Below, piece after piece: positions 11,339-64,000 of a DNA stretch of 64,000 bases (position 1 is the first letter of the stretch; each line of letters opens with the position of its first letter). Origin of the DNA: a virus; the IMG/VR virus record IMGVR_UViG_3300045988_034528; one strand, written 5' to 3'. Under the pieces are notes generated by a model. It was not told the origin of the DNA, did no database searches, and saw only the letters and a program-made list of their open reading frames with translations. The translations under genes and the position numbers were made by a program.

Positions 11339-11344
11339 ATTCAG

Positions 11345-11496: not shown

Positions 11497-11513
11497 ATTT
11501 GCCTTTACTATTG

Positions 11514-15873: not shown

Positions 15874-15934
15874 CCATGTTGTATTTGAGTTAATTTAATG
15901 GAAAGAGCTGGTATGTGATATATAGGCTCTTTAT

Positions 15935-16008
15935 GGCTGATTAGCTCAACTGCATAGAGCAAAAGCTTCCTAAGCTTTAGGTTAAGGGTTGGATTCCCTT
16001 ATCAGCCA
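15935..16008 (+). tRNA. tRNA-Arg (CCU)
   Basis: Acceptor GGCTGAT/ATCAGCC, D arm GCTC...GAGC, anticodon arm AAAGC-TTCCTAA-GCTTT, T arm AAGGG-TTGGATT-CCCTT. Confidence 0.8.
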
Positions 16009-16093
16009 CTAGAATTAATCACTCATAATATTTTTATTTATGTGACTTATTGTCACTATAGTATAATGGTCTGTGAAGATAGTCATACTTAAT

Positions 16094-16165
16094 GTCCTCA
16101 TAGTTCAATGGATAGAACAATAGCCTCCTAAGCTATTAATCTGAGTTCGAGTCTCAGTGGGGATA
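16094..16165 (+). tRNA. tRNA-Arg (CCU), second copy
   Basis: Acceptor GTCCTCA/TGGGGAT, D arm GTTC-AATGGATA-GAAC, anticodon arm ATAGC-CTCCTAA-GCTAT, T arm CTGAG-TTCGAGT-CTCAG. Confidence 0.8.
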
Positions 16166-16196
16166 CAATTATAAAGTAATTTATTAAAGCACTTAA

Positions 16197-33128: not shown

Positions 33129-33148
33129 ATAAAAAAAAACAAAAGACA

Positions 33149-33712
33149 ATGGAAAAATTTTATTTGAAAAATGGAAAAGAAGTACAGATTGGAGACACTC
33201 TTACCAAGGTAACTAAGACTAAACATCCTCTATTTGGCGAAGGTACTAAGGTAGAAAGTATAGTAATTACCAAGACATCTTTGCCTAAACTGATTGAGAG
33301 GGGTATTATTACTACCTCACTTGGTTCTGACTTTGATGTAGACAAAGTTATGCCTACTGAGTCACATATGAATCTTCACTACTATGTTGAAAAGCTAGCA
33401 AAGAAACTTAACTGGAAGGTAGATAAAGTGTATAACTATATTAATACCATTGACAGTGTATATCCTGCTGCTGCATTCTCTATGTTACTCAGAGAAATAG
33501 CTATTGAGCTTGACAAGAAGTATAAAGATCATATTGAAAATAGTCCTGAGATTTATGTAATCTCTGTGTTTGATGGTAGAATTACCAAGGCTAATAAGGC
33601 TCATATCAAGAATTATAGGAATTTTGCTGCATTTAGGTCTGTAAGTGATGCCAAGATTGCTTGTAATATTATGAAGGATATTCTTAAAGAACTGTTCAAA
33701 AGTGGTAAATAA
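33149..33712 (+). CDS. hypothetical protein
   Basis: The track start 33110 overlaps UDG. ATG 33149 (MEKFYLKNGKEVQIGD...) is preferred. Confidence 0.65.
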   Translation: MEKFYLKNGKEVQIGDTLTKVTKTKHPLFGEGTKVESIVITKTSLPKLIERGIITTSLGSDFDVDKVMPTESHMNLHYYVEKLAKKLNWKVDKVYNYINTIDSVYPAAAFSMLLREIAIELDKKYKDHIENSPEIYVISVFDGRITKANKAHIKNYRNFAAFRSVSDAKIACNIMKDILKELFKSGK

Positions 33713-48000: not shown

Positions 48001-51000
48001 CAATGGAGAGACATTCATTGATAGGTTAAGCAGACTTAAATCCAAAGGTACTGGTGCTGAACTTAGGAACTTCCTAAGAACTACTCTTAATGACATAATG
48101 GAAGATGGTTTTGAACAAACCTACAAAGGTTGGGTAAGAGTAGGACTGCTTGATGAACTTCCTAATGGTAAGTACAAGTATCTTCCTTTTGAAGGTCAAT
48201 CCAAGCAGAATGCAATAACTGCAAAGGCACTCATTAAGGCTAAAGATGCTTTAGGTTCATTATGGAATACCAATATGGCTCTAATGCTTAGAGCCTATAA
48301 CAATAATAGTGCTTTTGATAGTAGGGAAGCTAATAGCCTAATGGAGCAAATCAAGGCATTACTTACAGATAAGACAACAAGAGGTGAGATGAAGTTGAAA
48401 GATGCCCAATCAATCTCAAGAAGTCTGTTTGTTAAGAACAATGCTAAGGATGCACTTAGGGAATACTATTGGAACAGTAAGTTAGCTACTTCACAAATTA
48501 TCCAGCTTACTACTACAGACCTTGCCTTCTATAAGAATCTTGAGGACTTTCAGAAGAGATATAAGGAGGTTCATGCTCCTGCCCTCAGACTGAATACTAA
48601 GGCTACTTATAAAGGTGAGAGAATTGGTAGGGATTGGGAAAGAACCATCTACTTGAAGGATGATGAGATAGTATCTTCTGTACTTGAAGACATCAAGACT
48701 GTACTTGATGAAAGGGTTAGAAGAAATGAAATGACCAAGATAGACAGAGATAATATCATCAGCAAGTTTAGAAATGTGAATGTAGCAGATGCTCAGGCAT
48801 ATAGAAGTTTGAGTTCCTATAGGGCAATACTTGGCATGTCAGGTCAGTGGACAGATGATATGGAGCAAGCATATAACAACTTCAAGAATGGAGATTGGAA
48901 TATTAAAGACTTCAATATCATTTGGCAGACTAAGAAGCCTTATGTTTATACACAAGTCAATAATAACAGTGGCATTAAAGGTCATACTGGAATTAAGACT
49001 CCTGTACAACATAAGAACTCAGAGTTTCTATTACTTGCTATACATGAACTAATTGCTGGTCCTTTAGGAAAGTCAGGCAAGCTGAAAGCCATAAATAAGT
49101 TTATGGAGGATAATCAGATTGATGTAGTTCAGTTTGAATCTACTACTAAGGTTGGAAAACAAGGTGTAATAGATTTGAATGATGTAAATACTGAAGCTGA
49201 TGTAATCCAAAGACTTAAAGATACTACAGGTATTGGATTTGGTAATGAGAATCCTAATGTAGTACATAAGGTATCTTATGAAGATTATGGTATTCAGACT
49301 GCAACTCCTGAACATGCTATTGATACAGTTCAGTTGGTAGGTACTCAGATTAGAAAGCTAATTACTGCTGACATCTCTGATGATACAATCATTGAAGTTA
49401 ATGGTAAGAAGATGACTAAGAAAGAGTGGATTGACCTGTACAATGCCATCAATACTGAGAATATTCTTCAAGCATTTGCTGATGTAGATAAGATATTCAA
49501 AGACCCAAAGAAGGTAGAAGAAATCTTACTTGAAGAGATAAGAGGTAATCAGAGATATGGTATGGATATGATGAGGGCTTGTACTCTTGATGAGAACAAT
49601 AACTTCAATATACCTCTCTTTGACCCTGTACAATCTCAAAGAGTACAAACTCTTCTTAATAGCGTAATTAAGGGTGGTAGTAAGAAAGTATCAGGAATTA
49701 CTAAGCAAAAGATTAGAGGTGGAGCATTAATTCAGGTATCTGATTATGGCTTAACTGACCAACTAAACATTGTATTCAAAGACAAGAATGGCAATCCTTT
49801 GAATTATGAACTTTATAAAAAGGAGTATCCTAATACCACAAGGGAAAGCTATGAAGAATTTGTCAAGAATGCCCAAAAGGAAGGTGGGTTGTCTATCATG
49901 TATCTTGAATGTTATATGCCTGCATATAGTAGAAAGTTTTATGAGCCTCTTATGGACCCAAATACTCATCAGCTTGATGTAACTAAACTTCCTGATGATT
50001 TGAGAAAGTTGATTGGATATAGAGTTCCAACAGAGGATAAGTACTCAATGGCTCCTCTGTATATTAAGGGATTCCTTCCTCAACAGAATGGTTCTGCAAT
50101 CATGCTTCCTGCTGAGATTACTACTCTATCAGGTTCTGACTTTGATGTGGATAAGATGTATATCATGTTACCTGAGTTTAATATTAAGAAACTATATAAT
50201 ATCAAGGGAGCTTGGGATGATTTCTATCTTAATAACCCAGATATTGTAGATGAGATTGATAGAAACTTAGGTGAGGCACTTACACAATTTATTAAAGAGC
50301 AGACTGAAGATTGGGATGAGGCAGCAGACTTGGATGATATAGAAGATATAACAAAAGAGTTTAAGGAATGGTTAAAGAAAGAAGGTATTAAAAGATACCA
50401 ATTCTCTGAAACTGCGCAGAAGAGATTCTCTGAATGGTTCAGAACTAATAAGAAGAATTACTTCATTAAGGAGAATATAGAAAAGATAAAGTATGACTTC
50501 AATAAGTCTCCACAGGAGAATAGTCTTAAGGCAAGAAATAACTTGTTGATAGATATGATGTATGGAGTTTTGACTAATGCAGATACAGCTTCAAAGATTC
50601 TTAACCCAGGTGGTTTTGATTATCAGAAGAAGGCTGCAAGAATTATGACCATTCTCAATGATTCTTATGAGAGTGACTTGGCTCAAGCATTAAAGGATGT
50701 AGGTGTAGAACTTAATAAGACTGTACAGAAAGGTGAAAAGTCTTATCCTAAGTCTATTGCTTCATATCTATTTGACTTAGACCTTGATACTCTTGATAAG
50801 TTGGCAGAGAAAACAAAGGTCAAGATGGACCCATTATCACCAAGAACTCAAGTAATGTTACATCAACAAAACATGACTGGTGCTAAGTTGATTGGTATTT
50901 ATGCCAACCATAATGCAAACCATGCTTTGATGCAACATACAGCATCTAATAAAGATGAAGATAAAGGTTTAGCTCTTAGTAAAGAGTATGGCTCATTTGT

Positions 51001-53095
51001 ATTGAATGGAAAGAGGCTTACATCTTTACATGATATTATGAATGGTGACAAGGAATTTATCTCAAAGAATAATGCTGGATTCTTGGCTGCTTCTGTGGAT
51101 AATGTTAAAGACCCTGTGCTTGCAGCACTTAATCAGAATACTTTCACTGCTGATGCTTCTATGCTTCTTTCAAGATTAGGTTATAATCCTATTGAGATAG
51201 GTCTGTTAATGATGCAGCCTATAGTTCAAGAGATTACTCAGACCTATTTTAGAGAGAGTAGAGAAGGCAAAGACCAGGATACTATCATAAATGAAGTACT
51301 GGATAAGTATGAGAAGAAGGCTGCTATTAATAATGACTTGACTTATGATAACTACAAGAGTAATAACTTCTACATTGAAGAGCTTGCAGATAACATAATG
51401 CTTGCTAAGGAAGCTGTTACTGACAGGTCTCAGACTTCTGATTTCAGAAAGATTGAGTTCTATCCAAGACAAGTTGCAGTTGGATATTTGTTTAAGAGAG
51501 TTATGAACTCTGCCAAGGCTTTGAAACAAGTAGTACAAGCTACTAGGGCTGATACTCAAAATGGAGCTGCTGGTCCTACTATTGCAGATACAGAGTTAAA
51601 GATACAGAAAGTAAAAGGTCTGTTAGACCAGATAAAGAAAAATGACAAATTCCCATTGGAGAATGCAGATGTTATCAGTGATTCTATTAGTGTGGATATG
51701 TCTATAGAGAATGTAGAGGAGAGAATGAATACTATCAGAAAACAATTACTTGACAGTAAACTTCCTTTCTTACAGGCATTCTATACATTAGGTCTTAAAA
51801 TGACAGAGAACATGCTAGGGTCTTATTTCCCTCAATATTCTGAATCATTCAGAGCTGTAATTAATAAGCTTAGAGACATGACTAAGACAGGTAAATTAGA
51901 TGTAAAAACTATGAATAGTGTTTATAATGATTTGCTTGCTTATATAATGTCAAAAACTAAGTTCTTTGGTTCTGAGTTGGTCATAAATCCTAATTCAGAA
52001 GTAGGAGATAAAATTAGGAGTTCTGCTGAGAAAAGGAGGGATTTTATTAATTATTTTCCTGAATACTTTAAAGAGGTAGTTTCTGAAAATGAGGATATAG
52101 CTGAATTAGAGTTCATTAAAAGGCTTAAAGTAATTAGAGCAAATGACAATAATCCTGTAGCTACTTTGGTATTTAAAAATGTAGGTCAATTAAGTCCTAC
52201 TTTAAGAGAGAGATATATGAGGGACTGGGCAACATTATTATATAAGGATAATCCAGAAGCTCAAAAGCTCGCCCTTAATCTATTTAGATACAGTTTCTAT
52301 AGAAATGGCTTTGCTTTTGGTCCTAATACCTTTATTCACTTAGCACCTGTTGCATTAAGAAAGGCAGTACCAGAATACATAAGTACCCTAAGAGATTTAG
52401 TAAATTGGAATGAGGATGACTATAGTCAATTTGTGGACCAATATGTCTATAATCACTTGGATAATAGAAAATTGGTTCCTGAAATCCCTGATACAGCCTC
52501 TGTCCAGTTCATAGGAGAGGATAATGAAGTTAAGGATAAAGTTACATTTGTGATTGATGGTAATGCTACCTTTGGAGATGAGAAAGTCATCAAGAAAAGG
52601 GAAGATACTCCTGATGGTCCTACTTATGACTTCTTTAGATATATAGGTAAGAGAATCGGAGGAAAATACATTTATTACAAACTGTCTTCATTAAATACTA
52701 AACAAGTCAATGTTGCAACTTATGAAAGGATTGAACCATTAGGTTTCAGAAACAGCTTCATTGAATATGAATATGGCAAGGATGTAGAGGAGATGGAAAC
52801 TGTAATTGATAAGAATGAGAAAGATTATGACCCTTATGCAGGTACATTGTCAAGATTTGACTTTGGGGATGTTATACCTGACTATGATGCTATGCCTGAA
52901 TATCAAGAATCAGAGGAATATGTAAAATCTCTTCTAACAGATATATCTGCAATGGCTTTTCAGCAAACATACAATGTTCCTCTTGATACTTCTGCTCCAA
53001 AGGCTGATGATGTAACAGCTATTCAGCCTAATACAGAGTATAAGGATGAGAATGGTGATAGTATTTGTGATGCTCCAACATTATATAGTTTATAA
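45020..53095 (+). CDS. giant virion-type RNA polymerase (two-barrel RNAP homolog of crAss-like phages)
   Basis: 2691-aa ORF. TTLSGSDFDVDKMYIM (Asp codons 50138, 50144, 50150) mirrors the universal NADFDGDQM metal-binding loop of multisubunit RNAP beta-prime. Such giant RNAPs are a hallmark of crAss-like phages. Confidence 0.75.
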   Translation: MSTNPTCLVVTPKIRELAAKFPNETVESVKNLVSLWQAKNNKSSEDIPLGSELNAFIKEIRKESPTTALPISKYVNTEGKNKGFLTKKGKELLSTSFDKEKFNEGTTKVSMYPGSSGTEIRIDFTSPTTGNSAFAIYYGSPTRKIWDLFNSSGSNATNVNDDRYWNNINKIVPESIRDLVESGKYSEMDSTAVETDPETLMVKRTALEDYFEKEYNVLKWGRSTEYNTIQIKKAISLLSRPEEKTTDALSSSFDTPRVTSVEEQQKVDLLFDPKTRKDRVTLIARLFSNEVDDALQEIADSLKRRIDDASGVEREELQAELNSLDRFSAIKKCTPAGIFKRVANIFNSYVQDTEEGRIQQELNKINAEENALIEAGEIDESERFSDEEKLEAAKKKAAYKNQEYKKIVDDPSVYKALAEKASTLLVMTEGIRMDPNYIAPADANLNDDDPEGNSEVDDEAEDWRQEEAYKDGWMTNFRQVSSQESLSQAVRKVIRQVPKLDYEGMYEEDDLGFTRYLDADYVHATLIDKLRNMINSDDMIPLLENMAKIKPWVNQVIELLQGDETLFSQFYQDFRKDFMPYWIQKKKMLPDGTFKMETIAVNKPEGVYYLLDAWRDNYENGVQLDDDSVYEKNGEINKDNAAKGLQWTVTLNNMFQNLDTESRLQLLEREDVWNTIMKLLHMLGIDANPSVLRTALTDIKTTPGITFTDPIMLLLPQLNIIFSGIKKGEIKSETREDGTEKRGDLINTFGSAYNMIASMMAEVTEDDIESSVRENDKSYYSHVTPNYLGKLIKNLKNVMNDKERFEQFMQTEFKQYEWFFKDGHWRNDWLRQLTESDELRKGLNHKVVLNSDKVDYTNWDDLDYTLVLLTEYWGDPDSTKSSIKYAWYHVPILSDSPSAEFIRFRKYTTGDVLDENGKKRTYDDVILDKLVDLVNQEYDRIMLVRERDEAYQSGDKSVEPIANYDIVRKKDGSIKSMGGAEFKFLPSLNNLRYDNGETFIDRLSRLKSKGTGAELRNFLRTTLNDIMEDGFEQTYKGWVRVGLLDELPNGKYKYLPFEGQSKQNAITAKALIKAKDALGSLWNTNMALMLRAYNNNSAFDSREANSLMEQIKALLTDKTTRGEMKLKDAQSISRSLFVKNNAKDALREYYWNSKLATSQIIQLTTTDLAFYKNLEDFQKRYKEVHAPALRLNTKATYKGERIGRDWERTIYLKDDEIVSSVLEDIKTVLDERVRRNEMTKIDRDNIISKFRNVNVADAQAYRSLSSYRAILGMSGQWTDDMEQAYNNFKNGDWNIKDFNIIWQTKKPYVYTQVNNNSGIKGHTGIKTPVQHKNSEFLLLAIHELIAGPLGKSGKLKAINKFMEDNQIDVVQFESTTKVGKQGVIDLNDVNTEADVIQRLKDTTGIGFGNENPNVVHKVSYEDYGIQTATPEHAIDTVQLVGTQIRKLITADISDDTIIEVNGKKMTKKEWIDLYNAINTENILQAFADVDKIFKDPKKVEEILLEEIRGNQRYGMDMMRACTLDENNNFNIPLFDPVQSQRVQTLLNSVIKGGSKKVSGITKQKIRGGALIQVSDYGLTDQLNIVFKDKNGNPLNYELYKKEYPNTTRESYEEFVKNAQKEGGLSIMYLECYMPAYSRKFYEPLMDPNTHQLDVTKLPDDLRKLIGYRVPTEDKYSMAPLYIKGFLPQQNGSAIMLPAEITTLSGSDFDVDKMYIMLPEFNIKKLYNIKGAWDDFYLNNPDIVDEIDRNLGEALTQFIKEQTEDWDEAADLDDIEDITKEFKEWLKKEGIKRYQFSETAQKRFSEWFRTNKKNYFIKENIEKIKYDFNKSPQENSLKARNNLLIDMMYGVLTNADTASKILNPGGFDYQKKAARIMTILNDSYESDLAQALKDVGVELNKTVQKGEKSYPKSIASYLFDLDLDTLDKLAEKTKVKMDPLSPRTQVMLHQQNMTGAKLIGIYANHNANHALMQHTASNKDEDKGLALSKEYGSFVLNGKRLTSLHDIMNGDKEFISKNNAGFLAASVDNVKDPVLAALNQNTFTADASMLLSRLGYNPIEIGLLMMQPIVQEITQTYFRESREGKDQDTIINEVLDKYEKKAAINNDLTYDNYKSNNFYIEELADNIMLAKEAVTDRSQTSDFRKIEFYPRQVAVGYLFKRVMNSAKALKQVVQATRADTQNGAAGPTIADTELKIQKVKGLLDQIKKNDKFPLENADVISDSISVDMSIENVEERMNTIRKQLLDSKLPFLQAFYTLGLKMTENMLGSYFPQYSESFRAVINKLRDMTKTGKLDVKTMNSVYNDLLAYIMSKTKFFGSELVINPNSEVGDKIRSSAEKRRDFINYFPEYFKEVVSENEDIAELEFIKRLKVIRANDNNPVATLVFKNVGQLSPTLRERYMRDWATLLYKDNPEAQKLALNLFRYSFYRNGFAFGPNTFIHLAPVALRKAVPEYISTLRDLVNWNEDDYSQFVDQYVYNHLDNRKLVPEIPDTASVQFIGEDNEVKDKVTFVIDGNATFGDEKVIKKREDTPDGPTYDFFRYIGKRIGGKYIYYKLSSLNTKQVNVATYERIEPLGFRNSFIEYEYGKDVEEMETVIDKNEKDYDPYAGTLSRFDFGDVIPDYDAMPEYQESEEYVKSLLTDISAMAFQQTYNVPLDTSAPKADDVTAIQPNTEYKDENGDSICDAPTLYSL

Positions 53096-53112: not shown

Positions 53113-56100
53113 ATGGCAAGAAGTTGTGCAATTATTCCAAAGGTAAAGAATAGGAATGGTCAAGTAGTGGACAGCAAGTTATTTAAGGACTTGCTGTCCT
53201 TCACTTCAAACAATAGAAGTGAGGCTACAAGACTATATCTTATTACAAAAGCTGACTCTTTTATAAGAGACTGGAATCCAAGGCTAACATTAGATGAAAA
53301 CAATGAACCTACATTGAGAAGTTTGATAAAGCAGACTAATCTTAGTAAAGTCATTCCAGAAACTAAAGTACTTGAGAGACTTAATAGGGAGATTGGGTAC
53401 TATAAGAAAGGAATGGACAGACCATCCCTATGGGTAAACAATGATGAGAATTATCAAAAGTTGAAACAAAGGGCTATAGCCTTTAATCAGAACTCAGAGT
53501 ATAGGGATGATTATGTGGCTAATATAATCAAGATTCAGGACAATGAGTCCCCAAGAGTATTCATTGGAGTAAAGATTGAGAAAAGAAATAGGCTTAACTC
53601 TGTCAATGCAGATAAGATGGAATACAACGAAAACCTTAATAACAGGTTGAGAGGTATTCTTGAATCTCATGGAATAGGGATAGGTGCTTTGACTGACCTT
53701 GAAAAGAGAATGGGTATTCATGGTATAACTGACTTTGATGTTGCAAGAAATGCAGCAAATGGTCTTGTTGAAATGATTAGGCTTGCTAATGGTATTCAAG
53801 GTGAAAGAGCACTTCCTGAGGAATTTGCACACTTTGCCATTGAAGCTATGGGAGATAATCCACTTATCAATAGACTTATCAATAATATATCTTCCAATGG
53901 ACTGGCAAGAGAAATTATAGGTGAGGACTATGACACCTATGATACCTTATATCATAGTGATGAGACTAAGTTAGCAAAAGAAGCTGCGGGTAAATTACTT
54001 GCAAAACATCTATTACAGAGTGAGGAAGTTCCTATAAAGCCATATAGAAACTTACTACAAAGAGTAATTCAGGCAGTTAAGAATCTCTTTAAGAATATTA
54101 ATGCAAGTCCTATACAAAGAGCTATGAAGGAGGCTGACAAGAACTTTGGTTCTTTAGCACAGCAAATACTTAATGGCAGTATGGATGAGGTTATTGATAT
54201 TAGTAATATTACTTCAAGTGGGGTATTTTATAGTACCTCAGAGAGAGTGGCAAGAGATAAGAAGTTACTTCAAGGAATCATTGAGAATGAGTTGAAGAGA
54301 TTGAAGATTTATGAAAAGAGAAATCCTAATAGCCAGTTTAGTGCTAATCAAAGGTTACTCATTGATAGATTGGATATTGAATTAGCTGATAATAATGAAA
54401 TTGAGGGTATTTATACTTTTGTAGAGAATGCTCTTGAAGAATTGACTAAGGTAAGTGACAGACTTACTATGTTACAGAATACTCCTGCTACTAATGTTAA
54501 TGAAAGGGCTGGTGTTCTAAGAGATGTCAGAAACTACTTGTATAGTTACAAGCACATTACTGATGATATTAGAAAGGCTCTTATTGATGAAGAAAGATAT
54601 GCAGACAATAGATATGGTCAGAGAGTAAGGGTTGTGTTAGATAATACAACTACACTACTTGGAGACTTGTTTGTCAGATACAACAATGTAGCAATGCCTC
54701 TTTTTGTTGATTTCATTAAGCCTTTTGTGGGAGAGAGTATAACTGTTCCATTTGGTAAGTTCAAGGGTAAGACTATGACTGCTGAAGACTTGGTGAAGGT
54801 AGCTGATAAGGACATATCTTTCTTTGATAGATGGCTTGACTCTATGGCAGACTCTTCAGATTATATGCTGAAAGTTATGGACCAAGCTGTCAAAAAGAGT
54901 AAAGAAAATGCAAGGTTGGAGACTATCAATGTTATGAAGGAACTTCAAGCTGCTACCATTAAGTTAGAGCAAGCTGGGATTAAGAATACTGACTGGATGT
55001 TTGAAAGAGACAGTAAAGGTAATCTTACAGGTAATTATATCTCTGAGATTAACCAAGGTCTATTCAAGGAGAAAGTTAGGGAAATGTTCAAGTCTCTTAA
55101 TGAAAAGTATGGCAATAATCCTGTAGGAGATAATGTAGAGAAGTACAGAAAAGAGAGACAAGCTTGGTTTGATGATAATATGGAAGTGGTCAATGGAAAG
55201 AAGCAGCCTAAAGTGTCAATCTATGGCAATAAGGCTTATCAGAACTTGAATCCTGCCCAAAAAGAATACTACAATAGGATTATGGAAATAAAAGCTAAGT
55301 TGGATTCACACCTTCCTGATAAGTACACTACCTTAACTAATGCAGTTAAAATCAGAAAGGACTTACTTGAAAGAGTAAAGGCATCTGATAGTGTAAGGTC
55401 AGGTAGTACACAAGTATGGGAAGCTATTAAAGACCAATTCATTAGAAGGACAGATGACACTGAGTTTGGAGATAGGGCTACAGTAAAGGACTTTGAAGGT
55501 AAAGAGGTACAAGTACTTCCTATCTATTATACTAAGATGAAAGAGGGTGAAAGTCCTAATGACCTATCTACTGATATAGTATCTACTCTTACAGCCTATG
55601 CAGCTATGGCTAATGACTTTAATGAAATGAACAAAGTAATTGATGTTCTTGAGCTTGGTAGGGATATGCTAAAGGAGAGGGAGATTATACAGACAAGAGG
55701 TGGTAAACCATTGGTTGAAAAGTTCAAGTCTGTAGGTAGGAAAGTTGAATCTACTCTTACTAAATCTGGTGATGAAACAAGATTCATGCAAAGACTAAAT
55801 GACTTCTTTGAGATGCAAGTCTATGGTAGATATATGGCTGATGAAGGTACATTTGGTAATACTAAGATTGATAAGGGAAAGGTGGCTAACTTTGTTAATA
55901 GGATGACTTCTCTTAATACATTAGCTGTCAATGTGCTATCAGGTATTTCCAATGTGGCTACTGGTGGAGTTATGATGAGAATTGAATCTTTCTCTGGAGA
56001 GTTCTTCAATGAATCTAATACTCTAAGAGCTGATAGAAACTATGGTCAAGCATTACCTGAGTATCTTGCAGAGATTGGTAACAGAGTTAAGACAAGTAAA

Positions 56101-57168
56101 CTTGCTCTGTGGGATGAATTGTTCAATGTATTGCAGGAGTATGAGACTGATGTTAGAGAAGTAAACTTTGACAGAAAGACTTGGTTCAGTAGAATGTTTG
56201 GTACTTCTGCTCTATTCCTTATGAATAATGCTGGTGAACATTGGATGCAGAATAGAACCTCATTAGCACTTGCAGATGCTTATAAAATGAAAGCTTCTGA
56301 TGGTAAAATAGTTTCCTTGTGGGATGCTATGGAGGTGGTTCCTATTGATAAGAATAACAAGAAATTAGGTGCTAAATTGCAGTTAAAGCAAGGTTATACT
56401 AAGGAAGATGGTTCTGCATTTACAAAGGATGATATTATAGCATTTAGTAGAAAATCTGCTGCTATAAATCAGAGAATGCACGGTATTTACAATAAGGCTG
56501 ACAGAAGTGCAGTACAAAGGTTAGCTGTAGGTAGAATGGGTGTCATGTTTAGAAAGTGGATAAAGCCAAGCCTAAATAGGAGATTCAAATCTGCTACATA
56601 TAACTATGACTTGCAAGCATGGACAGAGGGTTACTATAATACCACAAGTAGGTTCTTGATGCAGCTTGCTAAGGAATTAAAAGAAGGTCAGTTTACATTA
56701 GCTGCAAATTGGAAAAATTTAACCAAGACTGAAAAGGCAAATATCAAGAGAGCTGCAACTGAAGTTGGTCATTTCTTAGCAGTAGCACTTGTACTTGGTC
56801 TTATGGACTGGTCAGATGACAAGGATAGACCTTGGTTGGCTAAGATGGCAGAATATCAGGCAAGAAGATTATACACTGAATTAGGTTCTTTGATTCCCGG
56901 ACCTCAGATGGTTGGAGAAGGATTGAAGATTATAAAGTCTCCTGCTGCTGGTATTAATACTCTTGAAAATACTCTTGATTTAATTGGGCTTATGAACCCA
57001 TTCAATTATGAAGTATTTGCTGGAGAGGAAGCTCTGATACAATTAGGTAGATATAAAGGAGAATCAAGGGCTTATAGGTTATTCTTTGAATCTCCTATTA
57101 TCCCAATGAACAAGACTATTTATAGAGGTTTGCATCCTGAGGAAGGTATTCCATTTTTTAAACAATAA
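53113..57168 (+). CDS. giant hypothetical protein co-transcribed with the RNAP (probable virion/ejected protein)
   Basis: 1351-aa ORF starting 18 nt after the RNAP gene. One clear hydrophobic helix (VGHFLAVALVLGLMDW). No catalytic motif recognised. Confidence 0.7.
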   Translation: MARSCAIIPKVKNRNGQVVDSKLFKDLLSFTSNNRSEATRLYLITKADSFIRDWNPRLTLDENNEPTLRSLIKQTNLSKVIPETKVLERLNREIGYYKKGMDRPSLWVNNDENYQKLKQRAIAFNQNSEYRDDYVANIIKIQDNESPRVFIGVKIEKRNRLNSVNADKMEYNENLNNRLRGILESHGIGIGALTDLEKRMGIHGITDFDVARNAANGLVEMIRLANGIQGERALPEEFAHFAIEAMGDNPLINRLINNISSNGLAREIIGEDYDTYDTLYHSDETKLAKEAAGKLLAKHLLQSEEVPIKPYRNLLQRVIQAVKNLFKNINASPIQRAMKEADKNFGSLAQQILNGSMDEVIDISNITSSGVFYSTSERVARDKKLLQGIIENELKRLKIYEKRNPNSQFSANQRLLIDRLDIELADNNEIEGIYTFVENALEELTKVSDRLTMLQNTPATNVNERAGVLRDVRNYLYSYKHITDDIRKALIDEERYADNRYGQRVRVVLDNTTTLLGDLFVRYNNVAMPLFVDFIKPFVGESITVPFGKFKGKTMTAEDLVKVADKDISFFDRWLDSMADSSDYMLKVMDQAVKKSKENARLETINVMKELQAATIKLEQAGIKNTDWMFERDSKGNLTGNYISEINQGLFKEKVREMFKSLNEKYGNNPVGDNVEKYRKERQAWFDDNMEVVNGKKQPKVSIYGNKAYQNLNPAQKEYYNRIMEIKAKLDSHLPDKYTTLTNAVKIRKDLLERVKASDSVRSGSTQVWEAIKDQFIRRTDDTEFGDRATVKDFEGKEVQVLPIYYTKMKEGESPNDLSTDIVSTLTAYAAMANDFNEMNKVIDVLELGRDMLKEREIIQTRGGKPLVEKFKSVGRKVESTLTKSGDETRFMQRLNDFFEMQVYGRYMADEGTFGNTKIDKGKVANFVNRMTSLNTLAVNVLSGISNVATGGVMMRIESFSGEFFNESNTLRADRNYGQALPEYLAEIGNRVKTSKLALWDELFNVLQEYETDVREVNFDRKTWFSRMFGTSALFLMNNAGEHWMQNRTSLALADAYKMKASDGKIVSLWDAMEVVPIDKNNKKLGAKLQLKQGYTKEDGSAFTKDDIIAFSRKSAAINQRMHGIYNKADRSAVQRLAVGRMGVMFRKWIKPSLNRRFKSATYNYDLQAWTEGYYNTTSRFLMQLAKELKEGQFTLAANWKNLTKTEKANIKRAATEVGHFLAVALVLGLMDWSDDKDRPWLAKMAEYQARRLYTELGSLIPGPQMVGEGLKIIKSPAAGINTLENTLDLIGLMNPFNYEVFAGEEALIQLGRYKGESRAYRLFFESPIIPMNKTIYRGLHPEEGIPFFKQ

Positions 57169-57266
57169 GATTATGGGTTTATATTTAGTAGTATTAATTA
57201 TTGGTATTCCTTTATGTATATTAGCATTAGGATTTCTAAATAAAGAAGATTAAGTTGTTAATAAGA

Positions 57267-57312
57267 AAGGGGAGTGAGTAGATTAAGTTCTACTCCTCCC
57301 CTTATTTTTTTA
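57267..57312 (+). terminator. rho-independent terminator for the plus-strand block
   Basis: AAGGGGAGTGAGTAG-ATTAAGTT-CTACTCCTCCCCTT followed by ATTTTTTTATTTT. Confidence 0.7.
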
Positions 57313-57314
57313 TT

Positions 57315-57356
57315 TTCTATAAAATAAAAGGGAAGTAACATTTCTGTTACCTCCCT
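57315..57356 (-). terminator. rho-independent terminator for the convergent minus-strand gene
   Basis: The minus strand reads GGGAGGTAACA-GAAA-TGTTACTTCCC followed by TTTTATTTTAT, about 25 nt after the stop at 57380. Confidence 0.65.
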
Positions 57357-57379: not shown

Positions 57380-60300
57380 CTAAAAAGCTATACATTTAAT
57401 AGCTTGGTCTCTCTCTTCTTGAGAAATTGAATCAAACTTCTCTACTGTCCAACCTTTCTTCAATAGATTTTTCTGCATCTCTGTATCTAAAGACTCAAAA
57501 GAAGAATTAGGTACTTTTCTATATCTAATATCATCATTAGTTCTAGAGAATGTTCCTACATTATCAGTAGCTGATTTAATTTGATTAGGATTAAATACTA
57601 CATATTCACTATAATTAGCATCACTTATAATAATATGCTGACCATCGTTATCTCCTATATTAGAATCTTTTTTTGTATAACCTTTTTTACGAGTTCCTTC
57701 ATAATTAGTTATTTTAGGATTTCTAATGTTTAAGAAGAAAGCTCTAGTACTTGGTTTTTCTATTTCCCAAGCTTCATCCATCTTTTTCTTATCTTCATCA
57801 TTTAATAGTCCTTCTCTTACTAAATCAGCTAACTCAATCCACTTTTCTTCACTCTTAAAAGTATATATTTCTTCATAGAATTTTGCATTAGATTTAGAAG
57901 TAGTAAAATATGTTCCTATATCTCCTTTTTTAATACCTGCCCCAAATTGTCCTCCTTTAGTATTGAAAATCTTAGCACTACTACCTCCATGATAAACAAC
58001 TAAAGGTTCACCATTTTCATCAACTACTTTAGAAGCATTTTCTGGGTCATTTTCCCAATCACCAAACCAATCTTTGAAAGCTTTAGTTCTTACTTGAGCA
58101 TATTGTCTTTCAGTAAGATTAGATACTGGACCTCCAGGTTTAACTAATAATTTACCTTCAGAGTTTCTAGGAGCTTTAGTAAGAATATCTTGCATTTCTT
58201 TAGAGTATTCTTCTTGTCCTGCTCTAGCTTGACTAAGAGTTTTTACAGGCAATTCTCTATTACTATATTCTCCTCTATTTATCATTTGATAGTATGCAGT
58301 AAGATGAGGTCTAATACTATTCCAATTAGTTACTTTAATCCATAGGTCTCTAAAGAAGTTTTTAATTTTACCTAATAATCCAGCATTTTGTCTAGTAGTA
58401 ACATACTCTCTGAATCCTTCTGCCATATCTTCTTCAAGAGAAAGATTATCTTTTTCACCATATAATTTCCTTGCTTCATCATATAGTGCTTGTCTTTCAT
58501 CATTGTCAAGAAGGAGATTAAATACAGCATGGAATGCTTCATGGTATGCAGTACCTTCAGCAGCTATGTCAGACAATGTGATTACACCTTTATCAAATTG
58601 ACCCCAAGCTAAAGTACCCCTCTTACCTACTTTAATAAGACCTTTTACTACCTTTACTCTATCTGATTCACTTAATTGTGGAAGTACTTTATTTAACCAT
58701 TTAAGTTCTTTTTTCTCATCCCACTTTTCATAATCAGGTGATTTTACTTTTCTTAATTTATGTCTTGTTCTTGAGGCTTTCTTATTGTTTATTGCCTGTT
58801 CCTTTTGAGTAGTATAGGCAGCACCTGTCTGGGTATTACCTTGATTAATAGTTGCAGGAGTTTCCACAGTAGTGATAGGAGTAGCATTTACAGTAGGTAC
58901 TGCATCAGGGTCAAACAATATAGTCTTTTCTGATGCTAATTCCTTAACTTTCTGAGGCTTAGCTTCAAGTCCTTTCTTAATTGCATCCTCAACTTGTGAT
59001 TGGATCATACCCTCCTGCACCTGATTATTCTTCAAGAATAAGAATGTCTTACCATTAGGGAATACTGCATAGAAGCTGTTTGAAGCTACATGGACTACTT
59101 CAGTTTCTCTTCCAAATCCCTTTGTAATATTAGGAACTTTAGTTATATAAACTTCAACCCCATCAATTACAGTAAGTGGTGTAACATATCCTTTATGTAA
59201 TTTGCCATCCAACTCAAAGTAACCTACTCCCTCATCAGCATTATTCATACTGTGTTCAGGTGTTAAATCTTCAATAGGGTTCTGTGTCTCTAATGAAGTC
59301 TCAAAGATAGGTAATACTGTCTGAGCTTGTGCTGGAGTAGCAGGAGTTTCTGTAGATTTATCTACTTTAACTGCACTTGCTAAAGGCACATTAACAGCAG
59401 GATTATATGCAATAGGAATACCCTTTTCACTTTGTACTGCTGATACATTCTCCTTATCATAACTCAATACAAATGGCATTACAGCTAACTTAGTAACTGG
59501 TACACCATACTGAGATTCAAATAGGTTCTTGTAAGCAGAAAGTTGTAAAGTATAGTAATCTTTTGTACTCATTCTCTGAGTAGCAGATGGAGTAGTAAAG
59601 TAATTAACCTTGTGACCATATCTGTCTGTAAAGTCATAGAAGCTGTATCTGCTTGTCTTCACATCATAGATTCTAAAGTTACCATTCTTATCAACAGAGA
59701 GAATATCAACCTCACCTGCAATTCTTGTACCATCAGGATATTTTTGGAATAATACTATGTTATCAGCAAGGAATCTCTCTCCCATTTGCTCCATATTTGA
59801 CTTAACTCTATTAAGAGTAGTAATCAAATCTATGAAAGCATTCTCTGACATATTGGAGGGCTTTACTATCTTAGATACATCTTTTATAGTAAAGTACTGT
59901 CTAATGATACTATCTACTGCTAAACCAGCATCAAGTGCCCTTTGTGAATTAGTACTAGACATCTTGTCTCTTACTATATTCATAATAGTATCTCTACTCT
60001 TGGCATCAGTCTTATCTCTGTAGGCAGTCAAGTCTATCTTAAACTTGTTCTCCAAGTGTTTCAGATAGTTCTCATACTGAGTAGGATTATCTACAAACTT
60101 GCTAAGATTAAGTCTTGCTAATTCAAGAGTCTTTGTCTGCTTGTCAGATACTATCCAATTAGAGCCTAATCTGCTATGTACTCTACTATATTGGTGATAT
60201 TCACCATCATCTTCAAGTACATAATAAAACTCTCCATCAGTTCTTGTCTTGTCTACTCTCTTTTGGTTCTCATATATTTCACTGATAACCTCCTTAGACT

Positions 60301-63300
60301 TGGTAACTCTATCTTCTCTTTCTTTCTTCCTACCTGCAATAGTATCCTTAACATCTTGTGCATCCTGACCACTGAGATATGTCTGCTTGCTTCTATCAAG
60401 TACTTTACCATCAGGAGTAAGAACCTTATTATCTACCATCATTGAAGAATTAGTAGAATCCCCAAAGTTATCTTGTGCCCAAGCTAAATCAAATAATATT
60501 CTATTATCATTAGTAATTGTTACACTTTTACCTTGGTCATCCCTAATAGTATTTGTCTTTAAGTCCACATAGTATGGCTTGTTTGAGAATACAGATGTTA
60601 TTCTTGTACCACTTATAGCACCTTCAGTACCACCTACAGGAGTCTCTACTTTCCTCTTAGGTTGAGGAGCTACAGAAGCTGGACTTATAGCTTGATGTAA
60701 GTTACTTTCATTATCAAAGTAATCAGTTGTGAACCAAGTACCTCTTACTGAAGCCTCAGTAATATTTGAAGTGAGAATATTAGAGTTTATCAATCTGTTG
60801 TTGTATGTACCCTCATTTATTCTTCTTGTGCTAACCTGCAAAGGAAGATTGAACTTGATAAGGTGTCCAAGTATCTCATTGTATATATCCTCAGGATTCT
60901 TAGGGGTACCTAATGCACTTGTATCTCCCAAATCTTCAAGAGCAGCCACATCAAAGTTTATACCTCCAATCTCTGCACTCTTGCTACTTGTAGAGAAATA
61001 TACATCATACTTATCTTCCTTGATTTGCTCCTTCCCATTAATGGTTACTTTCTCATAAGTACCATCTGGCTTTCTTACCTTCTTACTGATAACAATTCCA
61101 TCACCTGTTCCACTATTGAACCAAGTAATCATAATATCCTGCATATACAAGTCTTGTGCTAAGTCTTGCATAGCAGCAGATACATCATCTTGTGATGTAG
61201 CAGTTGATAACTTAGTAATAGCATTCTTTATATCTTCTCCTATAGCAGTAGAACTTACTGAGCTATCATTCAAATTAAACTCTTCATTATTGAAGTGTTT
61301 AACTCTTACAGCAGCAGGAGAGTACTTACCAGCTCCATTAGGTATAAGCATATATAATCTACCCTCCTTTTGACTCATATCCACTGGCTTGATAATAAGA
61401 CTGTCATTAATCTTATTATTAGTAGTAAGAACACCATTCTTTATGATACCAAAGATAGGCTTTCTATCAGTTGAAGATACATTAGGAATATCTTTAAGAC
61501 TTCTTTCAGTATTACCATAAGGAACTCTACCTACCATTACCTTAGATACTCTTGTAGTAGGTGTAGCAATGAACTTACCTTTAGTTGAAATACTTTTTGC
61601 TACATATTTATCTACAGCTTCTTTTTTTAAGGGTACTCTTAAATCTCTACCAATACTAAAATCAACAAAGGCTCTTCCATCTTTTGTTATTATTATTTTC
61701 CTTATACCAACCTCTAATTTATTAGTAAACTGGTTAGTAAGTAAAGTAGTAATAGTTTTTTTTCCTTCTTCTACTTCTTCTTTAGTTGCATTATTCTTAG
61801 TAACTACTGTACCATCCTGCCTCCTAGCTCCAGCAGCATACTCTGCAAAGTCTATATCATCAAAGTCTAATTCTATAAATGCTTTTCCATCTTCTAGAGT
61901 TCTTATTTCTCCCTCTTGATGTCCTTTTGGGGCACCTTTAACATAAGTTAGTTTAGCAGAATAAGTTATAACAGTATTACCATTACTATCTATTTTCTTA
62001 TGTGGAGTAACATTATAATTAACCTCTCTAGTCTCGCTTTTTATATTAAAATTAAATCTATCTTCTGCTTGACTCTCATTATCAGACGGTTTTGAAGACT
62101 GAGAACCTCTCTCAGCATACTCACTTCTTATCTTCTCTTCAAGACTTTTCAGACCCTCATACCTTGAAACACTATAGTCAGATTCATCTAAACTACCAAC
62201 TACTTGACCATTCTTTTTATCTATAATAAATATAGTAGGTTGAGTATGCCAAGATTGTCCTTCTACTCTTTTTTCATATTCTGGGTCTATCATAAACCCA
62301 AGCTCACTGCCTACCTTTAAATTACCTTGATTAACATATTCAAAGGCATTATTATCTAATAGGTAGTTATATATCTCTGAAAAATCTACACCTTTTTCTC
62401 TCTCACTTACTACAACATTAAAAGGCCTAAAGTCTCCTTCCTTGCTTGCCTCTATATGTAGTTCAGGTATAGCAGGTCTATAGAATTGATTGGTAGTATC
62501 CCTACTTGGTCTTTGTGGAGTTTCTACCTTTTCATTAGCTTTCTTATTCTCCTCACTAACCATCTCAGCAGTTATATTACCTACAGGTAATTCTACTGTA
62601 GGCAAAGCCTCACTACTTGTTACAGTAGGAGTAGTAGTTGTACCACTATCTCCTGTATCAGTCCTATCATCACCTCTTACAGTTCCCTCTCTTTTCTCTA
62701 CTGGCTTCTTATATTCAGGTGAGAATCTATCCTTAAATTTATTGTCATTGTTTACTTTAGACATTGCTCTTTGAAGTTCATATTGAGCTTCTTGGAATCT
62801 TGTTGCAGACAACTCAACATCTCCCTCAGAATCTTCATCAAAGGCATTCTCATTATTAATGTAGATTGAATTAGGATTAGCTAAGTACTCCAAACTATCA
62901 GAGTTATTGAATTGGTCTTGAAGAAGTTTCATAGCATCTTGTTTAACCTGTGGTTCTGCATCTGACTCATTAAGAACTCTCCTTACTTCATTATTATATT
63001 GTGAAGTTTCTCTGTAGTTCTTAGCTATTTCACTACCTTCATCCTCAAGTTCTTTTAGGACTTTATCTCTATTCTCTGTATCATCTTGGGCATCTATTGT
63101 ACTTCTGAACTCTTGCAAGTTCTGTGCAGCATTTAAAGATGCTTTCAAGTCATCAGATTTCTTTTTAGTCTCTTGTAATGTAGCCTGTTCATCAGCTCTT
63201 GCATGGTCTTCTGCTTGCTTTTGAGGATTCTTAAGGTACTCTTTTAACTTTGCATTATATGTCTTTGAGGCATTACCTAACTTGACAATATCATTCAGCT

Positions 63301-64000
63301 TAGTTGTAATATCTGCTTTCTCATCTGCACTAAGTACAGTTTCATCTACCTCATTAATTTCCTTGATAAGACCATCTACAAACTTAGGATTAGTTGCCAA
63401 TGTATGAGCCAGTACCTTATCATCTTGACCTCTAACCATATTAAGAGTGTTGATAGCACCTTCAATGGCTTTTACATTCTTATCTGCTTGTTTATATCTA
63501 TCAGTTAAATCAGCATGAGATTGACCTTCAAAGTCTCTTACTTGCTGATTGAATCTAAGGAATGAATCTAAGTTACCTATTACATCACTAATAGCTGACT
63601 TTACCTCTCCAGACATAGCTGTTGCCCTTTCAGCCCAGTTACCTATCTGAGACTTCATCCATGTCAATTCTTCAAGCTGACCATCTGATAATTGCTGACC
63701 TGTTCTAAGAATAAGTTCATCCTTTATATCTTGATACTCCTTTATTGTATTAAGAATGTCTTCCTTATTCTTGTTTATTTTGGAAGCCATCTCATTCATA
63801 GCTTCTTTAGTCCCAAAATTGGCTATTATATTGCCATTATCATCTTTAGAAGCATATTGGGAAAATGGTCCAATTAAATTACCCTCTTCATCCTTTGAAG
63901 TAGTATTAACCACTATAGACTCTAAATCCTCTTGTGAAGTTCCTGATGCCTCATTTATAGCAGATTTTAAGTCTTCTAGCTTTCCTGCTTGGTCAAACAT
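57380..64000 (-). CDS. giant polyvalent protein (C-terminal 2206 aa; may extend beyond the window): PD-(D/E)XK nuclease, HExxH metallopeptidase and ART-like domains
   Basis: AGEVDILSVDKNGNFRIYDVKTSRY (about 59650..59720) fits D...(D/E)xK. GTAYHEAFHAVF...EEDMAEGFREY (HEAFH codons 58528..58542) fits a zincin. The C-terminal VVYHGGSS...GTYFTTS...SEYVVFNPNQIKS (about 57560..58010) fits an H-Y-E ADP-ribosyltransferase-like pattern. The N-terminal third is coiled-coil-like. Confidence 0.7.
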   Translation of the reverse strand: MFDQAGKLEDLKSAINEASGTSQEDLESIVVNTTSKDEEGNLIGPFSQYASKDDNGNIIANFGTKEAMNEMASKINKNKEDILNTIKEYQDIKDELILRTGQQLSDGQLEELTWMKSQIGNWAERATAMSGEVKSAISDVIGNLDSFLRFNQQVRDFEGQSHADLTDRYKQADKNVKAIEGAINTLNMVRGQDDKVLAHTLATNPKFVDGLIKEINEVDETVLSADEKADITTKLNDIVKLGNASKTYNAKLKEYLKNPQKQAEDHARADEQATLQETKKKSDDLKASLNAAQNLQEFRSTIDAQDDTENRDKVLKELEDEGSEIAKNYRETSQYNNEVRRVLNESDAEPQVKQDAMKLLQDQFNNSDSLEYLANPNSIYINNENAFDEDSEGDVELSATRFQEAQYELQRAMSKVNNDNKFKDRFSPEYKKPVEKREGTVRGDDRTDTGDSGTTTTPTVTSSEALPTVELPVGNITAEMVSEENKKANEKVETPQRPSRDTTNQFYRPAIPELHIEASKEGDFRPFNVVVSEREKGVDFSEIYNYLLDNNAFEYVNQGNLKVGSELGFMIDPEYEKRVEGQSWHTQPTIFIIDKKNGQVVGSLDESDYSVSRYEGLKSLEEKIRSEYAERGSQSSKPSDNESQAEDRFNFNIKSETREVNYNVTPHKKIDSNGNTVITYSAKLTYVKGAPKGHQEGEIRTLEDGKAFIELDFDDIDFAEYAAGARRQDGTVVTKNNATKEEVEEGKKTITTLLTNQFTNKLEVGIRKIIITKDGRAFVDFSIGRDLRVPLKKEAVDKYVAKSISTKGKFIATPTTRVSKVMVGRVPYGNTERSLKDIPNVSSTDRKPIFGIIKNGVLTTNNKINDSLIIKPVDMSQKEGRLYMLIPNGAGKYSPAAVRVKHFNNEEFNLNDSSVSSTAIGEDIKNAITKLSTATSQDDVSAAMQDLAQDLYMQDIMITWFNSGTGDGIVISKKVRKPDGTYEKVTINGKEQIKEDKYDVYFSTSSKSAEIGGINFDVAALEDLGDTSALGTPKNPEDIYNEILGHLIKFNLPLQVSTRRINEGTYNNRLINSNILTSNITEASVRGTWFTTDYFDNESNLHQAISPASVAPQPKRKVETPVGGTEGAISGTRITSVFSNKPYYVDLKTNTIRDDQGKSVTITNDNRILFDLAWAQDNFGDSTNSSMMVDNKVLTPDGKVLDRSKQTYLSGQDAQDVKDTIAGRKKEREDRVTKSKEVISEIYENQKRVDKTRTDGEFYYVLEDDGEYHQYSRVHSRLGSNWIVSDKQTKTLELARLNLSKFVDNPTQYENYLKHLENKFKIDLTAYRDKTDAKSRDTIMNIVRDKMSSTNSQRALDAGLAVDSIIRQYFTIKDVSKIVKPSNMSENAFIDLITTLNRVKSNMEQMGERFLADNIVLFQKYPDGTRIAGEVDILSVDKNGNFRIYDVKTSRYSFYDFTDRYGHKVNYFTTPSATQRMSTKDYYTLQLSAYKNLFESQYGVPVTKLAVMPFVLSYDKENVSAVQSEKGIPIAYNPAVNVPLASAVKVDKSTETPATPAQAQTVLPIFETSLETQNPIEDLTPEHSMNNADEGVGYFELDGKLHKGYVTPLTVIDGVEVYITKVPNITKGFGRETEVVHVASNSFYAVFPNGKTFLFLKNNQVQEGMIQSQVEDAIKKGLEAKPQKVKELASEKTILFDPDAVPTVNATPITTVETPATINQGNTQTGAAYTTQKEQAINNKKASRTRHKLRKVKSPDYEKWDEKKELKWLNKVLPQLSESDRVKVVKGLIKVGKRGTLAWGQFDKGVITLSDIAAEGTAYHEAFHAVFNLLLDNDERQALYDEARKLYGEKDNLSLEEDMAEGFREYVTTRQNAGLLGKIKNFFRDLWIKVTNWNSIRPHLTAYYQMINRGEYSNRELPVKTLSQARAGQEEYSKEMQDILTKAPRNSEGKLLVKPGGPVSNLTERQYAQVRTKAFKDWFGDWENDPENASKVVDENGEPLVVYHGGSSAKIFNTKGGQFGAGIKKGDIGTYFTTSKSNAKFYEEIYTFKSEEKWIELADLVREGLLNDEDKKKMDEAWEIEKPSTRAFFLNIRNPKITNYEGTRKKGYTKKDSNIGDNDGQHIIISDANYSEYVVFNPNQIKSATDNVGTFSRTNDDIRYRKVPNSSFESLDTEMQKNLLKKGWTVEKFDSISQEERDQAIKCIAF

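Follow-up and report, generated by a model that had tools for sequence, protein, structure and literature searches.

A gp47-type giant protein gene of a crAss-like phage with predicted nuclease, zincin-like and exchangeable ADP-ribosyltransferase modules

We analysed a stretch of 64,000 nucleotides of viral DNA (IMG/VR record IMGVR_UViG_3300045988_034528), referred to as the window, whose minus strand carries the 3' part of a giant gene at one end. We consider it probable, at roughly 60%, that this gene encodes an ejected multi-effector cargo protein of the gp47 type, equipped with a nuclease, a zincin-like metallopeptidase and a swappable ADP-ribosyltransferase (ART). Orthology, synteny, domain content, the conservation of catalytic residues and the behaviour of the ART cassette carry this reading. 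Delivery with the DNA would follow from the cargo status of the orthologue gp47 of phage PhicrAss001, and the gene also stands directly after the crAss cargo genes. The ART module varies strikingly among near-identical phages, and this cassette pattern is the new part of our results.

Orthology and predicted enzymatic modules

The window DNA matches crAss-like phages only. Its best match is Kahnovirus cr85_1 (Steigviridae, Asinivirinae) with approximately 80% nucleotide identity, and judged by these matches the window comes from a Steigviridae-like crAss-like phage. In the open reading frame (ORF) check, positions 57380..64000 of the minus strand form a single uninterrupted frame of 2206 codons plus a stop codon at 57380-57382. 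The ATG at 64000 encodes an internal methionine, and the frame continues past the window edge. A database protein of 2757 amino acids (aa), P0001, which is encoded on a 95.7-kb metagenomic contig, is 100% identical over all 2206 fragment residues, so that 551 codons of the giant gene lie beyond the window end. Residue numbers given as 'fragment aa' are those within the 2206-aa part in the window.

PhicrAss001 gp47 (YP_009910787, 'putative RNA-polymerase subunit', 2341 aa) was aligned to the giant protein by BLASTP in three parts: the N-terminal part with 41% identity (aa 74-1183), the nuclease-zincin part with 51% identity (aa 1360-2477) and an identical HEAFH motif, and the last ~40 residues. 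By tblastn, the nuclease part is 64% identical to that of PhicrAss001. The counterpart in cr85_1 is annotated as 'putative RNA-polymerase subunit [phiCrAss001]', and the homologue in another record is labelled 'putative RNAP associated protein fused to zincin protease', RNAP standing for RNA polymerase. On the metagenomic contig (L009), the gene order is Ring, muzzle, cargo 1, cargo 2 (the last three with Pfam crAss_MUZ, crAss_CARG1 and crAss_CARGO2) and the giant gene, then the convergent gp49 and gp50; cargo 2 and the giant gene are spaced by one base. Sequence and gene order together identify the giant gene as an orthologue of PhicrAss001 gp47 and phi14:2 gp65 in conserved synteny. The crassvirus cargo operon, made up of muzzle, cargo 1, cargo 2 and gp47, ends with this gene, which is also its largest.

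An initial annotation of this DNA had read a PD-(D/E)XK nuclease core, an HExxH...E zincin and an H-Y-E type ART in one ORF. All quoted motifs lie in the single frame, each at one place in the fragment (Table 1), and the three module assignments hold up in our comparisons, that of the zincin less directly.

For the nuclease, we aligned 40 diverse copies with identities down to 32%, taken from a scan of 1.84 billion representatives (7159 hits). D1432 and Q1486 are invariant in this alignment, and E1430, D1446, K1448, T1449, S1450 and Y1490 are conserved in at least 90% of the copies. We take Q1486-L-S-A-Y1490 to be the QxxxY motif of RecB-family nucleases. The RecB-like pattern alone appears in 21% of shuffled sequences and is not rare; what gives it weight here is its conservation and the fold, not the rarity of the motif. 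The AlphaFold2 (AF2) model of the module has a predicted local distance difference test score (pLDDT) of 89.6 and a predicted template modelling score (pTM) of 0.79. In a Foldseek search of the PDB, its best match is human EXO5 (E-value 5e-4, probability 0.99), followed by SduA, AdnAB, Cas4 SSO0001, ACE1, NucS/EndoMS and AddAB; all of the best matches are PD-(D/E)XK nucleases of the RecB/Cas4 kind, with low TM-scores (0.17-0.28) and alignments confined to the core. PHROG 298, 'exonuclease', matches fragment aa 1225-1508 with an E-value of 5.9e-10. The four Fe-S cluster cysteines of the Cas4/EXO5 subgroup are missing, and the module contains no cysteine at all; we therefore place the predicted nuclease among RecB-like enzymes outside the Cas4/EXO5 subgroup.

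The zincin alignment (A2) comprises 25 sequences with identities down to 40%. Y1819, H1820, E1821, F1823, H1824, E1857, A1860 and E1861 are invariant in it. HExxH occurs once in the fragment, against ~0.02 expected, and 1.9% of shuffled sequences have one. In the zincin model (local pLDDT 70-88), the HExxH lies on a helix (73-86) after a small sheet, and the Glu pair is on a further helix (108-127). The metallopeptidases (MPTases) of polyvalent proteins have been described with this zincin layout (PMC5512222). In the phage collection, the module is confined to crAss-like genomes (65 of 65 records). These data support a putative crassvirus-specific HExxH...E zincin-like module.

The ART module scores 48.7 bits with the Pfam family ART-PolyVal (PF18760), above the gathering cut-off of 31.2, and covers model positions 1-140 of 140. 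The window protein has the full H-Y-E triad, formed by H2004 (strand 1), Y2031 (strand 2) and E2132 (strand 5). Its sequences VVYHGG, GTYFTTS and YSEYVVF resemble the PARP-1 strands xHGS, GIYFA and YNEYIVY. Although the model is patchy, ranks 1-32 of its PDB fold matches are all catalytic domains of PARP4, tankyrase, PARP12 or PARP1 (E-values 0.035-0.6, probability up to 0.90). Matches in BFVD reach an E-value of 1e-21. Several of them are named 'ART-PolyVal-like domain-containing protein', in cr271_1, cr130_1 and cr116_1, and 'PolyVal ADP-ribosyltransferase [CrAss-like virus]' is also among them; others are unnamed or carry unrelated names. The label is present in databases, but we found no literature discussing ART-PolyVal in crassviruses.

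The initial annotation had considered this combination of modules unexplored, which does not hold in full. The PD-(D/E)XK domain of crassvirus gp47-type proteins has already been noted (Yutin et al., 2021). The zincin of gp65 orthologues was known earlier, according to Drobysheva et al., who cite Yutin 2018, and that assignment was made with other profile methods. ART-PolyVal is already a database label in crAss phages. The family has thus been described before, and the window gene is an ordinary representative of it.

Exchange of the ART cassette

The 120 nearest homologues of the giant protein are approximately 90% identical per position except in two segments. The first, at fragment aa ~650-810, is missing or exchanged for another sequence in most near relatives, and no domain is recognisable in it. 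The second is the ART body. Its two flanks are strongly conserved, with ...RTKAFKDWFGDWEN..ASKVVDENGEPLVVYH on the upstream side and NPNQIKSATDNVGTFSRTNDDIRYR on the downstream side. Cut at these flanks, 108 proteins yield 15 ART body types of 100-316 aa that are less than 60% identical to one another; the type of the window phage has 21 members. These alignments show the ART body as a swappable cassette: no fewer than 15 types of it occur between conserved flanks on backbones that are ~90% identical.

The cassette types differ in the catalytic residues as well. At the Glu position, we observed SEYVVF (in the window phage), KEYVAF, DEYIAF, NEFVV, TSFVVF, QDVRIVF, TQIYV and TDYLV. This variety recalls the split between H-Y-E and H-Y-Φ among poly- and mono-ART PARPs. 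The expectation of the initial annotation that catalytic residues are conserved in orthologues stands for the nuclease, the zincin and the ART His, which are invariant or, at most of the nuclease positions, conserved in at least 90% of the copies, and fails for the ART Tyr and Glu, which vary by cassette type.

In some relatives the slot is filled differently or left empty. PhicrAss001 and three further relatives (P0067, P0083 and P0094) have no ART. Three others (P0032, P0058 and P0087) carry an alternative cassette of ~600 aa, in which an NTase-like GS...DID and a P-loop GHPAIGKTT were read by eye only; Pfam has no match for this cassette. One relative (P0099) has an additional weak GNAT-like piece. 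In contrast to the slot, the last ~40 residues of the protein (..KGWT.EKF.SISQEER..A.KC...) are kept in all relatives, including those that have no ART.

The cassette is also found on another cargo protein. The ART type of the window is 77-81% identical to the N-terminal module of three gp50-like proteins (P0185, P0188 and P0193), which are only 30-40% identical to the RNAP of the window phage; the DFDVD motif was seen in P0185 and P0193. An ART that is ~80% identical on RNAPs that are 30-40% identical indicates that the cassette moved between different cargo proteins of distant crassviruses.

We considered two specific routes for this variation; the first was rejected and the second is not supported. 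Diversification of the kind driven by a diversity-generating retroelement does not fit, as the window has no template-like repeat of the ART region and the change is whole-segment replacement with a change of length (100-316 aa), not point changes. A recent DNA transfer of the ART from the Suoliviridae phage cr130_1 was suggested by a megablast match of 84.6%. Only patches of 57 nt and 103 nt match, the proteins are 40% identical, and gp80 of cr130_1 is not an RNAP.

We tentatively suggest, at somewhat less than even odds, that the slot between zincin and tail acts as a recombination 'socket' for interchangeable ejected effectors, and that the same slot logic applies to the RNAP N-terminus in other crassvirus families. 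The flanks (…FKDWFGDWEN…VVDENGEPLVVYH and NPNQIKSATDNVGTF…) would let near-identical phages swap cassettes. The items exchanged would be ART variants with different triads, the ~600-aa cassette, the GNAT-like module, or nothing. If this is true, the cassette would help to decide which Bacteroides strains or defence systems a phage overcomes.

As a separate observation outside the window, three giant proteins (P0194, P0197 and P0256) contain tandem ART-PolyVal domains with 10, 7 and 8 matched stretches, respectively; one of these proteins has 7040 aa.

Proposed function and alternative explanations

PhicrAss001 gp47 (262.5 kDa) has been found in virions by mass spectrometry (PMC10172136). It was placed in the capsid cargo zone with gp46, gp49 and gp50, and its ejection in a partly unfolded state was proposed (PMC10172136). 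On the basis of this orthologue and of the polyvalent protein model, we propose that the giant protein of the window phage is made late and packed in the capsid cargo zone. It would leave the capsid along with the virion RNAP, in a partly unfolded state and either before the DNA or with it. Once in the cell, the nuclease may cut or resect DNA. The ART may use NAD+ to modify a host target; candidates are RNA polymerase, the translation machinery, defence proteins and nucleic acids. The most likely role of the zincin would be to process the giant protein or the RNAP proteins that accompany it, so that modules are set free or become active. The turnover of the cassette may point to an arms race with Bacteroides hosts, since ART exchange on a frozen backbone is what is expected of a module facing host counter-evolution. 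The initial annotation had counted a lack of early expression against such a role, which we do not follow: late synthesis is what one would expect of a protein that is packaged, and gp47 is transcribed late (PMC8375218).

Several points weigh against this proposal. The activities of the nuclease, the zincin and the ART in crassviruses are predictions. Virion presence is known for PhicrAss001 gp47, a protein that has no ART, and not for the window protein. The literature's term 'RNAP-associated' for gp47 could mean a role in transcription and not an effector. For the nuclease, Pfam PDDEXK_1 falls just below its cut-off of 22, with 20.8 bits for the domain alone and 18.1 bits for the whole protein. 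The zincin has no match in Pfam, NCBIfam or PDB-profile searches, and its fold matches are only SPRTN (6mdw, E-value 0.73) and MATCAP (E-value ~1). The joint model of zincin and ART has a moderate pLDDT of 68 and is patchy in the ART, whose PARP fold matches are weak (E-values 0.035-0.08). Meanwhile, the variation of Tyr and Glu across cassette types suggests that the activity of relatives may be different or lost.

The strongest alternative, which we consider rather unlikely, is that gp47 works within the transcription machinery of the virion instead of acting on the host as an effector. Here, the nuclease would nick or resect the entering DNA end to give a single-stranded template, the zincin would remove a domain that blocks the RNAP cleft, and the ART would be an optional add-on. 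The RNAP of phi14:2 transcribes single-stranded or denatured DNA well and double-stranded DNA poorly, and it crystallised in a self-inhibited form (Drobysheva et al.); the single-stranded template that this RNAP prefers would be provided if a RecB-like nuclease resected the incoming DNA end. The authors of the phi14:2 work proposed the gp65 zincin as a possible RNAP activator, yet recombinant gp66 is active alone in vitro (Drobysheva et al.). gp47, gp49 and gp50 are conserved as a set, and some phages have them as a single fused polyprotein (Drobysheva et al.), but a physical complex of gp47 with the RNAP is only hypothetical. The nuclease and the zincin are retained in PhicrAss001 and beyond, whereas the ART is dispensable, and elsewhere RNAPs carry the same ART as a direct fusion. 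The timing of transcription speaks against this alternative: gp47 is expressed late with the tail and cargo genes, and gp49 and gp50 are middle genes (PMC8375218). A helper function in transcription and a role as an ejected effector are compatible and do not exclude each other.

Two further explanations are less likely than either of these. We regard it as improbable that gp47 serves mainly in an ejectosome or in envelope crossing, with its hydrophobic, Gly-rich N-terminal part inserting into the membrane and the zincin digesting peptidoglycan cross-links for a DNA channel. The gene does stand right after those for cargo 1 and cargo 2, proteins for which channel formation has been proposed (PMC10172136), and peptidoglycan digestion is among the zincin options in Drobysheva et al.; a nuclease of the cytoplasmic type and an NAD+-dependent ART, however, would make no sense in the periplasm, and our Pfam and NCBIfam scans found no signature of a lysozyme or peptidoglycan peptidase family. 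The single Cys in 2206 aa would suit a protein that unfolds to pass the tail. A hydrophobic segment is present at P0001 aa 110-130, with Gly/Ala-rich stretches nearby, but it is the sole such segment, weak, and outside the window. We give hardly any credence to the idea that the enzyme-like modules are inactive relics serving as bulk or scaffold in the capsid: activities known from prediction alone, the Tyr and Glu differences between ART cassette types and a zincin that no profile matches would agree with it, but the catalytic residues of nuclease and zincin show little or no variation even among relatives with identities as low as 32-40%, and in the window ART the H-Y-E triad is complete and the Pfam score exceeds the cut-off.

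No phages of the human gut are more abundant than crassviruses. With a nuclease whose catalytic residues are intact, a protease-like module and an ART under rapid exchange, gp47-type proteins offer concrete predicted activities and point mutants in a cultivable system, PhicrAss001 and its relatives. Judging by the cassette pattern, the arms race between phage and host seems to take place in part during the first minutes of infection.

Gene context and comparison with known systems

Table 1. Features of the giant gene and of its surroundings in the window
Feature	Window position	Fragment aa	Strand	Remarks
3' part of gp47-type giant cargo / polyvalent protein gene	57380..64000		-	2206 of 2757 codons + stop
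Charged, Pro/Gly-poor region	62651..63853	~50-450	-	composition only, crude check; 'coiled-coil-like' in the initial annotation
First variable segment	61571..62053	~650-810	-	identity ~0.35, ~50% gaps in 120 homologues
Predicted RecB/Cas4/EXO5-like PD-(D/E)XK nuclease module with long N-terminal helical part	59441..60433	1190-1520	-	
Nuclease core motifs G-E1430-V-D1432 ... D1446-V-K1448-T-S	59651..59713		-	alignment conservation
Q1486-L-S-A-Y1490 (QxxxY) after the DxK strand	59531..59545		-	Q invariant, Y at least 90%
Quoted nuclease motifs EVDILSV; IYDVKTS		1430-1436; 1444-1450	-	motif search
Zincin-like metallopeptidase module: helix, small beta-sheet, HExxH helix, Glu helix	58388..58717	~1762-1871	-	
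H1820-E-A-F-H1824	58529..58543		-	motif and alignment
E1857 ... E1861 (EEDMAEGF), candidate third zinc ligands	58418..58432		-	both invariant
Quoted zincin motifs YHEAFHAVF; MAEGFREY		1819-1827; 1859-1866	-	motif search
Conserved upstream flank of ART cassette (LLxPxG..SNLTERQYAQVRTKAFKDWFGDWEN..ASKVVDENGEPLVVYH)	58001..58153		-	alignments
Predicted ART-PolyVal ADP-ribosyltransferase module with H2004, Y2031, E2132	57548..58021	1994-2151	-	
Hypervariable ART cassette body	57596..57988	about 2005-2135	-	identity 0.03-0.15 in 120 homologues
Quoted ART motifs YHGG; GTYFTTS; SEYVVF		2003-2006; 2029-2035; 2131-2136	-	motif search
C-terminal tail (..SFESLDTEMQKNLLKKGWTVEKFDSISQEERDQAIKCIAF)	57383..57508		-	conserved even in ART-less orthologues; holds the only Cys of the fragment
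Intrinsic terminator of giant gene	57319..57356 (hairpin 57356-57329, 12-bp stem + T-run)		-	free energy (dG) -18.9, z -6.4
Intrinsic terminator of convergent gp50/gp49-like operon	57267..57316 (hairpin 57267-57303 + T-run)		+	dG -25.7, z -5.5
gp49-like RNAP-associated cargo protein	53113..57168		+	71% identical to PhicrAss001 gp49
gp50-like virion RNA polymerase	45020..53095		+	DFDVD at aa 1707

The giant gene converges on the RNAP operon, as the initial annotation had stated, with the gp49-like and gp50-like genes both on the plus strand. The back-to-back terminators that it had placed at 57267..57356 are real by our folding analysis, in which both hairpins with their T-runs are far more stable than shuffled sequences. 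A consensus terminator scan caught the minus-strand terminator only, and the plus-strand one was seen by hairpin folding. In PhicrAss001, gp47 is transcribed late and gp49 and gp50 are middle genes (PMC8375218), which fits the convergent layout and the separate terminators in the window.

Outside the modules, fragment aa ~50-450 are probably helical on the basis of composition, and gp47 is largely alpha-helical by AF2 prediction (PMC10172136). The single Cys of the fragment (aa 2203) lies within the conserved C-terminal tail, in KCIAF, which is RCNS in PhicrAss001. This tail could be a packaging or partner-binding signal. An NCBIfam search of the giant protein gave no match. Pfam on isolated segments gave nothing credible for the zincin, the post-nuclease linker and two middle segments. 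The PDB search gave no match with a single sequence and chance-level matches only with the profiles A1 and A2.

Several observations concern neighbouring genes. Between the stop codon of the gp49-like gene and the plus-strand terminator, a very hydrophobic ORF of 27 aa (MGLYLVVLIIGIPLCILALGFLNKED) lies at 57172-57255 (+); the same gap holds a 63-aa 'shock protein C' gene (gp48) in PhicrAss001 and an HNH endonuclease in cr85_1. Upstream of the window end, the cargo 1 gene is seemingly split by a GIY-YIG gene of the homing-endonuclease type at L009 5034-8177, where a 270-aa ORF, a 255-aa GIY-YIG ORF and a 531-aa ORF with the crAss_CARG1 domain follow one another.

Elsewhere in the window, a 200-aa ORF at 33110-33712 (+), the orthologue of PhicrAss001 gp73 that adjoins UDG, contains GIITTSLGSDFDVDKVMP, nearly the same sequence as AEITTLSGSDFDVDKMYIMLP, the active-site loop of the RNAP encoded by the gp50-like gene (33308-33345 versus 50117-50154, 79% DNA identity over 38 nt). 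This stretch of the ORF belongs to a variable loop, and the orthologues of PhicrAss001, bajarodcaudo virus and cr85_1 do not have it (3 of 3). We therefore rejected a conserved copy of the RNAP active site; the likeness is probably a chance match or a short phage-specific conversion patch. The window also has 18 tRNA genes, 15 of them in an array at 9287-11586 (-) and three at 15802-16166 (+), with two each of tRNA-Ile(TAT), tRNA-Arg(CCT), tRNA-Asn(GTT) and tRNA-Glu. tRNA-Arg(TCT) at 11424-11496 and tRNA-Arg(CCT) at 16094-16166 form a 76-nt inverted repeat.

Among known systems, PhicrAss001 gp47 and phi14:2 gp65 are the closest. They stand at the same place after cargo 1 and cargo 2, converge with gp49 and gp50 and share 41-51% identity with the window protein. 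PhicrAss001 gp47 has no ART, whereas the window protein has one of ~210 aa between zincin and tail, and the segment at fragment aa 650-810 is also different. The proposed socket of gp47 would resemble the variable tips of polymorphic toxins.

At the level of single modules, the nuclease has its best fold matches and the order GxxD ... DxK(T/S) ... QxxxY in common with RecB/Cas4/EXO5 nucleases. It differs from them by its long N-terminal helical extension, the lack of Cys and a Pfam score below the cut-off. PARP and tankyrase catalytic domains, which are H-Y-E ARTs, supply all top PDB fold matches of the window ART at 11-17% identity; unlike PARPs, the window ART has no PARP regulatory or helical domain. 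The polyvalent ART family (PF18760) was described as H-Y-D (Iyer et al., PMC5512222), but the window copy is H-Y-E. Phage T4 Alt is an ART that is carried in the head, injected with the DNA and modifies host RNAP and other proteins (PMC5512222). The likeness to Alt is a working model and not a claim of homology, Alt being a stand-alone protein of the R-S-E clade.

Polyvalent proteins combine an MPTase hub with ARTs, and N4-like RNAP-ART fusions are among them (Iyer et al. 2017, PMC5512222). N4-like virion RNAPs occur with an MPTase, and the virion RNAP of Roseovarius Plymouth podovirus 1 with an ART (PMC5512222). These RNAP-ART fusions are mirrored by the ART-RNAP fusions of crassviruses, with the difference that the RNAP of N4-like systems is T7-like and the crassvirus partner is a two-barrel, QDE-1-like RNAP (Drobysheva et al.). 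The window zincin differs from the polyvalent MPTase in having no Pfam-A match (the PolyVal MPTase model was not checked by name) and in being found in Crassvirales only. What the window protein shares with polyvalent proteins is the design of a giant protein of the virion-associated type that strings together unrelated enzymatic domains, including a zincin and a PF18760 ART: with its predicted nuclease, zincin and ART, it holds unrelated effector-type catalytic domains in one protein of 2757 aa.

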